A model generated the notes under the pieces. It was given only the letters and a program-made list of their open reading frames with translations, made no database searches and had not been told where the DNA came from. A stretch of 31,765 bases of DNA from a virus, in IMG/VR virus record IMGVR_UViG_3300005947_000002, positions 1-31,765 of that record; one strand, given 5' to 3'. The position numbers and the translations under genes are program-made. Of this stretch, positions 8,288 to 12,034 are shown piece by piece (position 1 is the first letter of the stretch; each line of letters starts with the position of its first letter).

Positions 8288-8812
8288 TCAACTATGCGCG
8301 ACTGTTACTAATCCTGCAGGGAAGTTCAGATGGACACGGCTGCCGACCATGCCCTTGTTCGCGTACTCGCGGGCGATACGGTCGTGTTCCCTGGCTGCCG
8401 TCTCCGGGTCATTCACGTAGCGGCTGGTGACGACGTGCGTCTTATGTGTCCGGGGATCTGTCGTATTGACCACTGCCCGCCACTTGCCCTTGCCGACGGG
8501 CGCGATGCCAAAGTAGGTATGCCTTGGTGCCAATGGTTGCAGTGGGCGGACGTACTTCGTGTGGACCGAGGACAGGCGTTCGACCCTTGCCAGGACCGTC
8601 CCGTTCCATAAGCGGTACATGTCCCGGATACCATCTGTCGTCTGTAGAATGACCTTGCCCTCCATGATGCGCAGATCGGCGACGACATCCGCAAGTAGGA
8701 GGACGAATCCGAGGGTGGGGCCTGAGACTTCACACAACGTGCATGACGCGCTCAGGATGACGTATCCTCTAGCTGCGAGCGCTGCAGCCACATGCTCTCC
8801 AGTGTTTGTCAT
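8288..8812 (-). CDS. AP2-domain DNA-binding protein (174 aa)
   Basis: HTYFGIAPVGKGKWRAVV...YVNDPETAAREHDRIAREYANKGMVGSRVHLNFP fits the AP2/ERF-type pattern seen in phage and homing-endonuclease-associated proteins. The start codon is uncertain. Confidence 0.7.
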   Translation of the reverse strand: MTNTGEHVAAALAARGYVILSASCTLCEVSGPTLGFVLLLADVVADLRIMEGKVILQTTDGIRDMYRLWNGTVLARVERLSSVHTKYVRPLQPLAPRHTYFGIAPVGKGKWRAVVNTTDPRTHKTHVVTSRYVNDPETAAREHDRIAREYANKGMVGSRVHLNFPAGLVTVAHS

Positions 8813-9725
8813 CTATCGTTCCTTCCCAGCGCCAAACGCCAGCGTTCTCGTCGTGCCGTCTTTCTGTCCTTCGGCGCAGCACCTTTCGTTGGCCGGTTTT
8901 TTCCATGCGTGGCGCTGCGGTTACACTGCCCTGCCTTCTTATATTATGCGGATGGCCGAAACCCCCGCTCGAGGAACGTACTGATCTCCGTAAGACACCC
9001 GGCGTCGTAGAGGGTGCCACTCTGCGGGAAGAAGGCATAGCGCCGCCAGGGTGCGTACCACTTGATGACGCCCAAGATGGCAAGCCCCTGGAGGTTCCTC
9101 CCCGCCCATATGCGCGTCTTGCCAGAACTGCTATGCCCAAGCTCTTCAAAGCGCAGGTACACGGTGTCACCTCAGCCCCGACGTATTCCTTGCATTGAAC
9201 AGTGGGCTTCGGGCAACGAATGGGCCCGACACATTCCTTGCAGTCCTGTCCTACTCGTTCGCACCCGATACACAGACAGCAGTTGTGCATGCAGTCCTGT
9301 TCCTTGCCGTCGGGAGCGCGGAAGTCCGGACAGAGACCCATCTTGCCGCCGTGCTTCATACAATGCTCGAACCCCTTGCAGTCGTGACAGCTCTTGCCCT
9401 CGTTGGCACAGTCAAGGCAAAGACAGTCGGAGCAATCCCATAGGACTTTGCCTTCGGAGTACCACTTGCCGTTCAGCAGCAAGGCTATTGGCTTTTTCGT
9501 AGGCTTGATGGCAAGGTCAAGCAGCGCGTGTATCTCACATGGCAGGTGGATCTCTTCGAGGTGTGGCACATCCTTCAACGTGCACGGAACAAACCCATGC
9601 TGACAGCCGTTATAAACGACGCAGCGGGCGCCACGCAGAACACAGTAGTCCTCAACTATGACCTGCTCGATAGGTTCAGGAAACAGACTATCCACATACC
9701 CGGAATCAATCTGACGGGGTCTCAT
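8769..9725 (-). CDS. Cysteine-rich protein; credible coding is roughly 9163-9725, and the rest of the open frame overlaps two downstream genes
   Basis: ATGA overlap with the methyltransferase at 9722-9725. There are multiple CxxC clusters (CSDCLCLDC, CHDC, CMHNCCLCIGC, CKEC). After about residue 188 the translation becomes Arg/Ser/Gly-rich, and no in-frame stop occurs until 8769. Confidence 0.5.
   Translation of the reverse strand: MRPRQIDSGYVDSLFPEPIEQVIVEDYCVLRGARCVVYNGCQHGFVPCTLKDVPHLEEIHLPCEIHALLDLAIKPTKKPIALLLNGKWYSEGKVLWDCSDCLCLDCANEGKSCHDCKGFEHCMKHGGKMGLCPDFRAPDGKEQDCMHNCCLCIGCERVGQDCKECVGPIRCPKPTVQCKEYVGAEVTPCTCALKSLGIAVLARRAYGRGGTSRGLPSWASSSGTHPGGAMPSSRRVAPSTTPGVLRRSVRSSSGGFGHPHNIRRQGSVTAAPRMEKTGQRKVLRRRTERRHDENAGVWRWEGTIDDKHWRACGCSARS
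8944..9162 (-). CDS. Conserved-looking small hypothetical protein (72 aa)
   Basis: GTG start with GAGGTG 7 nt upstream. Hand-counted GC3 is about 70 percent, typical of coding here. The GKTRIW...LGVIKWYAPWRRYAFFP...CLTEISTFL pattern resembles small phage proteins I recall (unverified). Confidence 0.6.
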   Translation of the reverse strand: MYLRFEELGHSSSGKTRIWAGRNLQGLAILGVIKWYAPWRRYAFFPQSGTLYDAGCLTEISTFLERGFRPSA

Positions 9726-10700
9726 ACAGCAACCTCGTCGATTGCCTTGATGCTTCGCATGAGTTCCATGGCGACCTGCGGGACTATGGAGTTGCCGAGC
9801 GCTTTTAGCCTTTGTGTCCGATGTCCTGATTTGGACAGTTCAAGTCCGTCCAGCCTGACGGGTAGCCCATCATCCACTCGACAAAGGGCGGTTGCAGCTT
9901 CAACCCATCCTTGGTTCCAGTCGGGGAAGTCCCCATTCCATAAGTGATGACGTTCGGCAGCTGGCTCATGTGAGGCCGTTTCCTCTGCATATGCTTCGGC
10001 CCGTTTGCTCCCTTGTAATCTCTCGTCGCAGGCGTTGGCAGTAATGCGATCTGTGTCCCCAGATCGTCGCCCCCACTGCCTTTCCGGCTCGCTCTCGCAT
10101 AGTCCGGACCCGATGGAGACGCCTTCGGTGTCGCGACAAGCGACAATCCAGACTCTGTCTCTTTTGTGCGGCGCGCCGATAGCCGCAGCTGGAATAATGA
10201 GCGGTTGAACTTCGTAGCCCAATCGCTCCAAGTCAGTACACACCTGTTCGAGTGCCATGTTGACGATCCCAGGCACGTTTTCACCAATGACCCAATGGGG
10301 CCTTGTCTCGGATATAACCCTAAACATTGCAGGCCAGAGATAGCGGTCGTCTGCCCCCCCCCCGTCGTTTTCCTGCTTGACTGAACGGCTGGCAGGGGAA
10401 GCCACCGGTGAGGAGGTCAAGACGTCCGTCAAGCTCATCGAGTGTTTGCTGCCCTCTCTGTGCTGTGTTGACTTCATGGGATCCCAGCTGTCCGCTGCTC
10501 TCGGGGTCGGCAATAAGTCGTTCGGCTGATAGAGTTCGGATGTCATCATAGACGTTCACCCCCGGAAATCGCAATTTGAGCAGCGCCTGACAATACGGAT
10601 CGATCTCGCAGAAACCGACACAGTGGTAATCGGCACCCCACACTGTCTGAGCGGCAAGGGCAAAACCACCAATGCCAGAGAACAGGTCCAAGTGGTTCAT
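9722..10700 (-). pseudogene. DNA (cytosine-5)-methyltransferase, split over three reading frames (frameshifted, recoded or decaying)
   Basis: Frame A (10700 down to 10320) has DLFSGIGG (motif I), EIDPYC and GGFPCQPFSQAGKRRG (motif IV). Frame B (10549 down to 9722) has DDRYLWP, GENVPG (VI), APHKRDRVWIVA (VIII) and RLKALGNSIVPQ (X). Frame C (10287 down to 9805) has LVATPKASPSGPD, LLPTPATRDYKG and FVEWMMGYPSGWTDL (TRD / motif IX-like). Confidence 0.65.
10354..10363. repeat. Homopolymer C10 (G10 on the coding strand) at the motif IV frame break of the methyltransferase
   Basis: Counted directly in ctgCCCCCCCCCCgtcg. G9 or G12 would fuse frame A to frame B, giving GKRRGGADDRYLWP. Confidence 0.95.
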
Positions 10701-10900: not shown

Positions 10901-11067
10901 AGTGTCACCCACCACAAACGTGTCCGCTCAATGTTTTCTTCCTTCGTGAACGCGGTTTGGAACTTCTCGTCTATCTCCCGCTGTTCTGCCGTCCGCCGTT
11001 TCTTCTTCTCCGCTGTGACGGCTCTCCTTTGACTGTTACGGATTGCCCTGCTTTCTGCGGTCGTCAT
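10897..11067 (-). CDS. Hypothetical basic protein (56 aa)
   Basis: ATGA overlaps at 11064-11067 and 10897-10900. The track start at 11148 lies inside the upstream gene and was rejected. Confidence 0.5.
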   Translation of the reverse strand: MTTAESRAIRNSQRRAVTAEKKKRRTAEQREIDEKFQTAFTKEENIERTRLWWVTL

Positions 11068-11603
11068 GGGGTCACCCCGGGAATGTACAGCACTTCCACG
11101 CGCACGTTGTGACGCCTTCCCCAGTGTATTGCCGCGTCCGTTGACCATAGGAACACGTCGAGCTTGTTGCCATGGATGGCGCCCCCTGTGTCGATGACGG
11201 TACAGGGCTTGCCGTCGTTATAACCAGGGATGACGACCAGCGAGCCGAAGGGCAGCACGGACAAGTCTGCAGCAATGCCACCAACGTAGACGCGCTTACC
11301 GCTGGCTGTCACCAATGGAGACGCGTCACATTCGGCAACGGTCGGACTATAGGCCGTGATCTCCATGGAGAGAACCATGACGGGTTCTGAGTATCGCGTC
11401 GTTACCTTGTCGATGGGAAGGGCTACGGCTGCCAGCCGACGAGCGACCCGGAAGTTGACGACATCGCCCGCGCTTGCCCGTTTTGGTGACGCCGCCACGG
11501 CTGCAATGAGTAGGACAATGGCAATCGCCCAGATAACGACCAGCACGGCTACGAGGATATCAAACCAACTGATGGGTTCTGTCCCACGCGATGACCACTT
11601 CAT
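11064..11603 (-). CDS. 3D-domain (RlpA/MltA-like double-psi barrel) protein with an N-terminal transmembrane anchor (179 aa)
   Basis: TM segment ISWFDILVAVLVVIWAIAIVLLIAAVAA, then ITAYSPTVAECDASP...GGIAAD...LPFGS...VIDTGGAI.GNKLDVF, the 3D-domain pattern. ATGA overlap at 11600-11603. Confidence 0.7.
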   Translation of the reverse strand: MKWSSRGTEPISWFDILVAVLVVIWAIAIVLLIAAVAASPKRASAGDVVNFRVARRLAAVALPIDKVTTRYSEPVMVLSMEITAYSPTVAECDASPLVTASGKRVYVGGIAADLSVLPFGSLVVIPGYNDGKPCTVIDTGGAIHGNKLDVFLWSTDAAIHWGRRHNVRVEVLYIPGVTP

Positions 11604-12034
11604 GGTGCCACCTGCCGCTCGTGCCACCAGGCCTCGAGTTCTTCGACTTCACGGATGACCAGATAGATAGCACCGGCTGATTCGAAACGTACCTGCCATT
11701 CCTTCTGTGGATCACTCTGGTCGGTTGTCGGACGCTTCATTTCGATGCCAATGAGACGGCCCGTGCCAGGTTCGATCGCCAGGATGTCGGGCAGACCCTT
11801 GACGCCGTAGCGAATGAACGACCGTCCGATCGTGCCATTTTTCCGGGTGTATTCGTGCTTGGCTGCGCCGGTGTTCTGCCTCCAGAATACGAAATCTTGC
11901 ATAGCGAGCCAAGCGAGGACAGCTGCCTGTCGTGGGGTTTCCTTGCGGGTCTTGCGAGCGTACGCTTCCGGGTCAAGAACCTCGTTGGAACAATCTGATA
12001 CCGGCTTGCGCCGTCGTTCTGCTGCGATGCTCAT
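11600..12034 (-). CDS. VRR-NUC domain nuclease (PD-(D/E)xK; 144 aa)
   Basis: GLPDILAI...LIGIEMKRP core is typical of VRR-NUC. It is preceded by start-associated element copy D. Confidence 0.7.
   Translation of the reverse strand: MSIAAERRRKPVSDCSNEVLDPEAYARKTRKETPRQAAVLAWLAMQDFVFWRQNTGAAKHEYTRKNGTIGRSFIRYGVKGLPDILAIEPGTGRLIGIEMKRPTTDQSDPQKEWQVRFESAGAIYLVIREVEELEAWWHERQVAP

Follow-up and report, generated by a model that had tools for sequence, protein, structure and literature searches.

On the minus strand of the window, the 31,765-nucleotide stretch of viral DNA analyzed here, the motifs of a C5-cytosine methyltransferase lie between positions 9722 and 10700 but are spread, as assembled, over three reading frames (A, B and C). 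This raises the question of whether the locus is a decaying pseudogene, a recoded gene or a pair of overlapping genes, three options that a sequence-only reading of the same DNA had placed side by side. Long overlaps between genes of one strand are regarded as uncommon in bacteria and DNA phages, and the locus bears on whether a nested layout, with a two-subunit mechanism known experimentally from M.EcoHK31I, is general to a phage family. The conservation of the layout and a stop-free +1 frame favor the overlapping-gene option and argue against decay and recoding. We consider it likely that the locus encodes two proteins from overlapping frames, a catalytic alpha chain and a nested beta chain that is the probable DNA-recognition subunit.

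Methyltransferase motifs in three frames

The C5-methyltransferase motifs identified at the locus include I (FxGxG), IV (PCQ), VI (ENV), VIII (RxR) and X (GN), read directly as DLFSGIGGF, GGFPCQPFS, GENVPG, HKRDRVWIV and LGNSIVPQ. No single uninterrupted frame holds all of the motifs at this locus: motifs I-IV fall in frame A, motifs V-VIII and X in frame B, and a motif-IX-like element in frame C, which is +1 relative to frame B. Frame B is open from 10549 to 9722 and holds APHKRDRVWIVA and RLKALGNSIVPQ, while frame C is open from 10416 to its TAA and reads, in order, LVATPKASPSGPD, LLPTPATRDYKG and FVEWMMGYPSGWTDL. These translations agree with the sequence-only reading, which had assigned motifs VIII and X to one frame and had recognized between them, in the +1 frame, target-recognition and motif IX sequences, here the PTP-type modules and the motif-IX-like FVEWMMGYPSGWT; its hand-counted GC3 values also held on recomputation (0.66 in frame C and 0.53 in frame B over 10141-9808). 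Profile searches matched the frame-A ORF to PF00145 (E = 4.5e-18, profile positions 1-83) and phrog_363 (E = 1.7e-27), and the frame-B ORF to the same two profiles (E = 1.3e-19, limited to PF00145 profile positions 62-176, and E = 1.6e-37, respectively).

The break between frames A and B is a run of ten G (G10), which divides motifs I-IV from motifs V-X, whereas the arrangement of frames B and C is conserved in relatives. The frame-C ORF extends upstream across this tract into the beginning of the frame-B ORF. Read through the tract, the locus holds two ORFs (Table 1): an alpha ORF (10700-9722) carrying motifs I-VIII and X without motif IX, and a beta ORF (10549-9805) in the +1 frame that lies wholly inside it and is interrupted by G10.

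Table 1. Features of the methyltransferase locus. All coordinates are given on the minus strand; frame B codons are at 10720-3k and frame C codons at 10719-3k.
Feature	Coordinates	Strand	Frame and content
Alpha ORF, N-terminal part, as assembled	10320..10700	(-)	Frame A, 126 aa; PF00145, phrog_363
Alpha start	10700	(-)	ATG
Alpha motif I	10688-10662	(-)	DLFSGIGGF
Alpha motif IV	10406-10389	(-)	GGFPCQ
Stop of alpha N-terminal part	10320	(-)
Alpha ORF, C-terminal part	9722..10354	(-)	Frame B after the tract; PF00145, phrog_363
Alpha motif VI	10282-10274	(-)	ENV
Alpha motif VIII	10174-10139	(-)	APHKRDRVWIVA
Alpha passenger linker	10138-9812	(-)	109 codons, Asp/Glu/Arg/Gly-rich
Alpha motif X	9811-9776	(-)	RLKALGNSIVPQ
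Alpha stop	9724-9722	(-)	TGA
Beta ORF, N-terminal part	10364..10549	(-)	Frame B before the tract; colinear with L003 beta; P0001/L134 compared
Beta start	10549	(-)	ATG
Beta PTP module 1	10516-10418	(-)	LLPTPRAADSW...SLTDVL
Beta ORF, C-terminal part	9805..10353	(-)	Frame C after the tract, 182 aa plus stop; phrog_1008
Beta PTP module 2	10140-10045	(-)	LVATPKASPSGPD from 10140
Beta PTP module 3	10044-9946	(-)	LLPTPATRDYKG from 10044
Beta motif-IX-like element	9885-9841	(-)	FVEWMMGYPSGWTDL
Beta stop	9807-9805	(-)	TAA
G10 homopolymer	10354..10363	(-)	C10 on the plus strand; in the dual-coding zone

The alpha ORF begins at an ATG that overlaps the stop of the upstream ORF (ATGA) and is preceded, 6 nt upstream, by GAGGTG. 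It leaves its frame at the G tract and continues beyond it with ADDRYLWP, motif VI and motif VIII, followed by the passenger linker, in which no ExxRxMGFP-like motif (motif IX) was found, and by motif X. The beta ORF covers approximately three quarters of alpha, comprising motifs IV-VIII and the insertion between motifs III and IV, and starts within alpha's Tyr-Asp codons with GGGGGTG 8 nt upstream. Its first PTP module lies in the insertion between motifs III and IV and, after reading QTTAISG...SSTWHSNRCVLTW...LFQL over alpha motifs V-VIII, it enters the other two modules and the motif-IX-like element, ending directly before alpha motif X. Beta hence carries three (L/V)xPTPxAxxD recognition-type copies and a motif-IX-like element; in canonical C5-methyltransferases, recognition modules and motif IX make up the small DNA-recognition domain. 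The KLQPPFVEWMMGYPSGWT segment of beta, nearly invariant across the beta family, resembles motif IX in pattern and position, and we keep the assignment at that level because sequence searches with beta against Pfam, NCBIfam and PDB chains returned no match.

Conservation of the nested frame

[quoted passage not shown] The alpha and beta products measure, respectively, 399 and 312 aa in L003, 330 and 309 in L005, 361 and 241 in L002, 321 and 189 in L004, 296 and 410 in L006, and 355 and 273 in L134. Beta is intact and nested in L003, L134, L005, L002 and L004, as well as in Paenibacillus phage Bloom and Acinetobacter phage ABMM1, and L126, L127 and L131 share the nested layout. Beta ORFs start at an ATG of their own with Shine-Dalgarno-like sequences, and whole beta modules have been lost or gained by indels between relatives (e.g. 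135 nt between L002 and L004). To restore one continuous protein, the sequence-only reading had called for the loss of 1 nt near 10135 and the gain of 1 nt near 9812. The intact relatives, however, are framed like the window at both places, and no indel needs repair: this gene family, when intact, conserves its two-frame layout. Neither error nor decay accounts for the changes of frame at 10140 and 9810, and the G10 tract is the only real lesion at the locus.

We compared the stops observed in the +1 frame with those expected from synonymous shuffles of the alpha frame. Downstream of the G tract, the +1 frame of the window contains no stops against 4.6 expected (p = 0.0008). The +1 frame is equally free of stops in ABMM1 (4.9 expected, p = 4e-4), in L003 (7.4 expected; 0 of 5000 shuffles) and in Bloom, at 44% GC (7.4 expected; 0 of 5000 shuffles), whereas the +2 frame of ABMM1 and L003 contains 22-28 stops. 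Codon-position substitution patterns were examined in the L126, L127 and L131 trio because the L002/L004 pair had too few substitutions for a clear test. In the alpha-only regions of the trio, changes collect at alpha position 3 (0.50-0.53 per site). Over the PTP modules, beta position 3 is the fastest (0.64), and identity is 0.39 in beta versus 0.21 in the alpha frame; over the motif IX region, it is once more beta position 3 that changes fastest (0.35 versus 0.11 and 0.16), with identities of 0.78 and 0.66, respectively. Across motifs IV-VIII, the rate at alpha position 3 drops to 0.34, as constraint on both frames would predict. Judged by these substitution patterns, beta and not alpha is the conserved frame in the stretch corresponding to 9815-10140. 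Purifying selection confined to frame B, the outcome that the sequence-only reading had set against its own proposal, was not what the relatives revealed; in them, frame C (beta) is under purifying selection, and not frame B alone.

These results make it exceedingly improbable that the locus is a decaying pseudogene in which two compensating frameshifts put the target-recognition domain (TRD) and motif IX out of frame. The locus is broken at G10 as assembled and this copy could be non-functional, but the changes of frame at 10140 and 9810 are shared by relatives that maintain long intact ORFs in both frames, the +1 frame is significantly free of stops, and purifying selection in that stretch falls on the +1 frame. 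Recoding, by a +1 shift after motif VIII and a -1 shift before motif X that would yield one polypeptide with motifs I-VIII, TRD, IX and X, is also quite improbable. The joined order is that of canonical C5-methyltransferases, a single +1 shift would give this order in Gordonia phage Float294 and in mycobacteriophages, and the beta stop lies only a few codons ahead of motif X in every relative. Against this, the beta frame is open for 100-300 codons upstream of the required shift point, beginning in ABMM1 and L005 as early as 4 nt past the alpha ATG, and beta has its own ATG, a Shine-Dalgarno-like site and a conserved N-terminal part. Furthermore, no shared slippery heptamer was seen at either junction in the window, L003 or L134, two successive shifts would be inefficient, and M.EcoHK31I functions as two chains.

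In the two-protein reading that we favor, the alpha frame would encode motifs I-VIII and X, which make up the large domain responsible for catalysis in a C5-cytosine methyltransferase. Two stretches, one separating motif III from motif IV and the other motif VIII from motif X, would be read in this frame only as linkers of odd composition. Beta, at approximately 247 aa, would be translated in the +1 frame from its own start and Shine-Dalgarno-like site at 10549 and would terminate at the TAA preceding motif X (9807-9805). By analogy with M.EcoHK31I, both chains would associate into one active enzyme.

Homology searches indicate that beta is widely distributed. The frame-C ORF matches PHROG 1008 with E = 1e-19, and beta matches to this group range from E = 1e-19 to 1e-36. 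The frame-C translation matched 104 database proteins at E <= 1e-5, and a beta profile search retrieved 52,878 cluster representatives at E <= 1e-3, with no Pfam domain in 97 of the best 100 of these matches. Beta is carried by 282 phage records, and both genes are annotated in Paenibacillus phage records. On the strength of these sequence matches, beta is a protein family of its own, for which neither Pfam nor NCBIfam holds a model, even though the similarity among betas over motifs IV-VIII is in part a by-product of alpha conservation. Overlaps of about 250 codons with both frames under selection appear to be routine in the alpha/beta methyltransferase family. Automated annotation gives only one of the two proteins, as the sequence-only reading had anticipated, and because gene callers usually report one protein, phage methyltransferase catalogues, specificity predictions and pseudogene calls are systematically incomplete for this family.

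Beta could instead be a real nested gene whose product is not a methyltransferase subunit but a regulator, an anti-restriction factor or another DNA-binding protein. Its similarity to any solved methyltransferase or Pfam family lacks statistical support, and the AlphaFold2 monomer model of the C-terminal part of the window's beta (70-sequence alignment; mean pLDDT 59, pTM 0.28) is mostly unstructured, with confidence confined to the motif IX helix. We nevertheless regard this alternative as improbable. Beta ends in KLxPxFVEWMMGYPxGWT, with the pattern and position of the motif IX that alpha lacks; in Float294-type loci, P0046 and P0100 the beta sequence runs in frame into motif X (LGNGVVPQ); and each of the approximately 20 beta-like loci for which the DNA was read overlaps a C5-methyltransferase alpha gene.

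Relationship to known two-chain methyltransferases

M.AquI (CYCGRG) is a two-subunit C5-methyltransferase encoded by two separate consecutive genes. The sequence-only reading had invoked it as a precedent, and, as in M.AquI, the putative enzyme is split in the variable region, with parts of the small domain on a second polypeptide. M.AquI is not, however, the nearest system. Its beta subunit carries motifs IX and X, and the description in PMC3404938 is confined to how the motifs are divided between its two subunits, whereas beta in the window is nested and has no motif X. Float294 and its mycobacteriophage relatives, in which beta comprises TRD, IX and X, are closer to M.AquI, yet their beta overlaps alpha by several hundred nucleotides.

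The system that comes nearest is M.EcoHK31I (E. coli HK31; YGGCCR), whose beta chain is read in a different frame from DNA lying wholly within the gene for alpha; activity requires the two chains together (Lee, Kam and Shaw 1995, described in PMC2836561 and PMC3404938). [quoted passage not shown] Unlike the window, the predicted TRD of M.EcoHK31I has been assigned to alpha, and its beta is described with motif IX only. In the window, it is beta that holds the PTP recognition-type modules, and the variable region of alpha is passenger sequence of low complexity; some three quarters of alpha is overlapped by beta, motifs IV-VIII and the III-IV insertion included; and the putative enzyme is phage-borne, with no partner endonuclease identified in the three adjacent ORFs checked.

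The PHROG 363/PHROG 1008 pair of Paenibacillus phage Bloom (BLOOM_56 and BLOOM_57, MH454077; both annotated as DNA cytosine methyltransferase) belongs to the alpha and nested +1 beta families of the window, but presents only about 30-35% identity to the window and has no poly-G tract. Two Paenibacillus phage papers list the methyltransferase genes and do not comment on nesting. Our search of the literature on nested methyltransferase genes in phages yielded only papers related to M.EcoHK31I, which is also the one enzyme in that literature for which the nested layout is shown experimentally.

The G10 tract in the dual-coding stretch

The G10 tract is the sole homopolymer longer than six in the 31.8-kb genome, and it shifts both ORFs by one base. 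As assembled, it yields a truncated alpha (126 aa) and a chimera joining the N-terminal part of beta to the C-terminal part of alpha (275 aa); neither ORF is intact, and the enzyme may not be made in this genome. A tract of nine (G9) would join the two parts of each ORF, giving an intact alpha of about 325 aa and an intact beta of about 247 aa, and at that length the alignments of both window ORFs to L003 and P0001 run through the tract ungapped. Within the same subfamily, the homologous tract is G8 and in frame in L126, L127, L129, L131 and L132, and out of frame by +1 in L093 (G9) and L089 (G10). In another methyltransferase family, 53 contigs from many independent assemblies comprise five with G7, 25 with G8 (in frame) and 23 with G9. 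These comparisons cover distant relatives rather than near-identical genomes: the nearest relatives of the locus have only about 40-55% identity, a DNA-level search of the phage collection returned only short 70% matches over motifs IV-VI, and exact-flank scans of viral and metagenome contigs found no near-identical genome.

Since relatives carry the tract at both in-frame and out-of-frame lengths, it is probably hypermutable and was captured here at a length that is out of frame. The competing explanation, that the metagenome assembly miscounted as G10 a true G9, which leaves both ORFs intact, is credible but falls somewhat short of probable. The tract is the only run longer than six in the genome, it is too long by exactly one base, and sequencing of long G runs is error-prone. 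The range of lengths among relatives speaks against a miscount, and the 5/25/23 split over 53 contigs seems too high for consensus errors.

Homopolymer-driven phase variation of DNA methyltransferases is known from bacterial phasevarions, where poly-C/G tracts lie in type III mod genes (as cited in PMC3711429). As in those genes, a long G/C homopolymer inside a methyltransferase ORF sets the frame and its length varies among related genomes. Unlike phasevarions, the window tract belongs to a phage gene and falls where two frames are read, so that one slip re-pairs the halves of two proteins instead of turning one gene off. The tract is a possible population-level switch of phage DNA methylation. 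Because both frames code at the tract, it is conceivable, if unlikely, that it switches among three states instead of simply on and off. G9 would then give alpha and beta, the presumed active enzyme; G10, the state seen, would give a truncated alpha (I-IV) and a chimera of the beta N-terminal part with alpha (V-X); and G11 would give a fusion of alpha (I-IV) to the beta C-terminal part with the recognition modules and motif IX. If so, a phage population could hedge between methylated DNA, which type II restriction would spare, and unmethylated DNA, which methyl-dependent restriction would spare, and even between alternative forms of the enzyme. In at least six subfamilies of phage C5-methyltransferases, long G tracts are found at this position downstream of motif IV, a recurrence suggesting that selection may maintain them.

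Overlapping reading frames in the window and its relatives

The window is a complete virus record of 31,765 bp with direct repeats at its termini. Three-frame translation resolved a C5-cytosine methyltransferase gene into a 0-frame ORF (alpha) and an ORF nested in its +1 frame (beta), the latter carrying PTP recognition-type modules. The frame-A and frame-B ORFs match PF00145 (Pfam), and a search of the window frames with the same model found no match in frame C.

Features of the methyltransferase locus, its neighbors and related loci (window coordinates unless a database locus is named; frame C is +1 of frame B)
Feature	Position	Strand	Content
Methyltransferase gene (alpha)	10700-9722	minus	C5-cytosine methyltransferase
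Nested ORF (beta)	10549-9805	minus	PTP modules, motif-IX-like block
Frame A		minus	MNHLDLFSGIGG...GGFPCQPFSQAGKRRG, motifs I-IV; stop 12 codons past the G run
Frame B	open 10549 to 9722	minus	Upstream of the G run, MMTSELYQPNDLLPTPRAADSW...SLTDVL...; past it, ADDRYLWP...GENVPG...APHKRDRVWIVA, a 109-codon Asp/Glu/Arg/Gly-rich string and RLKALGNSIVPQ, motifs V-VIII and X
Frame C past the G run	ends at TAA 9807-9805	minus	QTTAISG...SSTWHSNRCVLTW...LFQL...LVATPKASPSGPD...LLPTPATRDYKG...FVEWMMGYPSGWTDLNCPNQDIGHKG
First PTP module of beta	10516-10418	minus	LLPTPRAADSW...SLTDVL
G10 tract	10354-10363		Shifts both nested ORFs
318-aa ORF	8769-9725	minus	Start overlaps the alpha stop (ATGA)
187-aa protein	11064-11627	minus	N-terminal hydrophobic segment, C-terminal domain
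Inconsistent gene calling in the nested family	L134 421-1242; L009 1009-1905; L012 901-1437

The sequence-only reading had placed the recognition modules and motif IX of 9805-10141 in the frame +1 to motifs VIII and X, with frame B open throughout; this description proved accurate, as did its GC3 estimate (0.66 in frame C vs 0.53 in frame B). Its further claim, that 1-nt indels near 10135 and 9812 are needed to restore one continuous protein, does not hold, since relatives switch frame at those two places too. When viral contigs were searched with the frame-C peptide, five loci matched at 40-47% identity; at each, the catalytic motifs all lie in one long ORF, whose +1 frame holds another long ORF. 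Alpha and beta measure, respectively, 399 and 312 aa in L003, 330 and 309 aa in L005, 296 and 410 aa in L006, 361 and 241 aa in L002, 321 and 189 aa in L004, and 355 and 273 aa in L134, the contig locus that encodes the database protein closest to the frame-C peptide. The +1 ORF of the relatives ends in (F/W)VEW(L/M)MG(F/Y)PxGWT, and in both frames the parts of the window gene are colinear with L003; those in frames B and C that flank the G run join without gaps if the run is nine (SVKQENDGGGQTTAISG vs SARQDSEGERKMTVISG). The frame arrangement of the locus is conserved and is not damage.

The window beta ATG at 10549 is built from the Tyr-Asp codons of alpha (TAT GAT) and lies 8 nt downstream of GGGGGTG; beta of L003 starts at the homologous codon. 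The first PTP module of beta is a third module, at the N-terminus of the +1 ORF, and L003 and L134 have it at the corresponding place. It falls within a roughly 30-codon insertion between motifs III and IV of alpha, which therefore carries two passenger linkers. Across all the relatives examined, beta stops just before or within the motif X codons. Among cellular genomes, Candidatus Saccharibacteria and Adlerbacteria MAGs hold the closest relatives of the window alpha (L013-L016; 41-43% identity), a weak hint about the host range of the phage lineage.

Selection on both frames

When the synonymous codons of alpha were shuffled and +1-frame stops counted across the nested ORF, no stops were observed in Paenibacillus phage Bloom (44% GC; 7.4 expected, 0/5000 shuffles), L003 (7.4 expected, 0/5000 shuffles), Acinetobacter phage ABMM1 (4.9 expected, p = 4e-4) or the window downstream of the G run (4.6 expected, p = 8e-4). 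In ABMM1 and L003, by comparison, 22-28 stops interrupt the +2 frame.

Codon-position substitutions were assessed in three moderately diverged relatives from the window's subfamily (L126, L127 and L131). Differences pile up at alpha position 3 in alpha-only coding regions (0.50-0.53 per site), and this rate falls to 0.34 in motifs IV-VIII, as expected if the synonymous sites of alpha are also second positions of beta. Across the beta-aligned PTP-module stretch, beta position 3 is fastest (0.64) and identity is 0.39 in beta vs 0.21 in the alpha frame; the motif IX stretch behaves likewise (beta position 3 at 0.35 vs 0.11 and 0.16; identity 0.78 vs 0.66), and past the beta stop the pattern reverts to alpha position 3. 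These patterns therefore place purifying selection on frame C across the homologue of 9805-10141, the opposite of the frame-B-only selection that the sequence-only reading had set against its own frame assignment. Indels among relatives are gains or losses of whole beta modules (e.g. 135 nt, L002 vs L004), which the alpha linker length simply tracks. Together, these comparisons indicate that both frames are maintained.

Among the three explanations originally offered for 9805-10141, the overlapping gene stands, with the layout conserved in relatives and frame C under selection. We rejected a decaying pseudogene, relatives having intact long ORFs in both frames with identical frame changes, and likewise recoding, in favor of the overlapping gene.

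A poly-G tract of variable length

The G10 tract, the genome's only homopolymer longer than 6 and absent from the sequence-only reading, is the one real lesion of the locus. With nine G, alpha (~325 aa) and beta (~247 aa) are both predicted to be intact; G10, as assembled, would yield a truncated alpha of 126 aa and a 275-aa chimera of the beta N-terminus and alpha C-terminus, and G11 would fuse alpha motifs I-IV to the beta C-terminus. Scanning viral contigs for at least 9 G located 4-12 nt after the GCNGG of motif IV identified 77 contigs, all with genuine motif IV contexts, tracts of 9-17 G and several C5-methyltransferase subfamilies represented; motif VI differs in frame from motif IV in ~40% of them. 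In the window's subfamily, five loci (L126, L127, L129, L131 and L132) carry an in-frame G8 at the homologous position, and two, L093 (G9) and L089 (G10), have one base too many, as the window does. Across 53 contigs of an unrelated large-phage family, drawn from many independent assemblies, the tract is G7 in five, G8 (the in-frame length) in 25 and G9 in 23. This is the 'AGKQGGG' methyltransferase family of 60-140 kb phages (L022, L096-L125 and others), and its tract lengths constitute a natural data set on poly-G switching in phage methyltransferases.

Viral and metagenome collections contained no contig near-identical to the window at the tract. A simple miscount of the window's G10 is a real possibility, if somewhat short of an even chance, but the length variation across many independent assemblies of relatives looks like hypermutability rather than consensus error. 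As assembled, the window copy is caught out of frame at the tract.

Precedents, products and annotation

The window locus is a nested alpha/beta C5-methyltransferase of the kind typified by bacterial M.EcoHK31I, a kind that is known and under-described. In M.EcoHK31I, an alpha and a beta chain have to come together, and beta is coded wholly within the alpha gene in a different frame; removing the beta starts by alpha-silent mutations abolishes methylation, and beta in trans restores it (PMC2836561; PMC3404938). The window locus shares this nested architecture and differs in that its recognition-type modules sit on beta, its beta spans about three quarters of alpha and the enzyme is phage-borne. 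In Gordonia phage Float294, alpha ends after motif VIII and an overlapping +1 ORF carries the modules and motifs IX and X, an arrangement resembling the split of two-subunit M.AquI, but with overlap.

Alpha matches PF00145 and phrog_363, and beta matches phrog_1008, annotated "DNA methyltransferase" (E = 1e-19 to 1e-36); sequence searches of beta against Pfam, NCBIfam and PDB chains gave no match. A 70-sequence beta profile retrieved 52,878 cluster representatives at E <= 1e-3 from 1.84 billion proteins, and 97 of the 100 best of these 52,878 lack a Pfam domain; beta thus forms a very large family of mostly free-standing proteins with no curated model. Its near-invariant core is PTP...PTPKASPSGPDYAR..R..SGGDDLA...PTP...L.P.(F/W)VEW(L/M)MG.P.GWT, the last block having the pattern and position of motif IX, which alpha lacks. 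In canonical C5-methyltransferases the variable region and motif IX form the small DNA-recognition domain, and motifs I-VIII and X the large domain (PMC3404938). On the simplest reading, alpha would be the large and beta the small domain, produced as two polypeptides that then associate. Modelled by itself with AlphaFold2, beta gives a poor structure (pLDDT 59) that is confident only at the motif IX helix; this fits a chain folding on a partner and proves nothing. The database protein P0055 (227 aa) lacks motifs IV-VIII and reads in a single frame from motif I through PTP modules and motif IX to the pre-X segment and motif X; the in-frame order of its motifs IX and X is the canonical one. Either it arose by deletion or its gene call spans a frameshift in the contig.

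The architecture is striking and mostly missing from annotation and curated families, and it is already known, with a 1995 precedent and annotation as two genes in some phage records. By tblastn, one beta protein matches 282 phage records (Mycobacterium 155, Paenibacillus 48, Arthrobacter 33, Gordonia 15, Synechococcus 6, and others, by host). Both nested CDS carry a cytosine methyltransferase annotation in Paenibacillus phage records, and the two papers on these phages leave the nesting undiscussed. GenBank annotates alpha alone in ABMM1, where an unannotated 298-aa +1 ORF starts 4 nt after the alpha ATG, and in Escherichia phage ESSI2_ev129, whose annotated CDS has the beta-like match in its +1 frame. 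For mycobacteriophages Severus and Hammer the annotation gives two consecutive methylase genes, and the beta-like match runs across both. In L134 the JGI metagenome gene caller called beta and missed alpha.

Directly downstream of alpha, the 318-aa ORF has a Cys-rich first half and an Arg/Ser/Gly/Pro-rich low-complexity second half resembling an out-of-frame read; it found no PHROG match and may hide another frame change. The 187-aa protein matches PHROGs annotated peptidase or L-alanyl-D-glutamate peptidase (E down to 7e-17) and is probably a cell-wall hydrolase.
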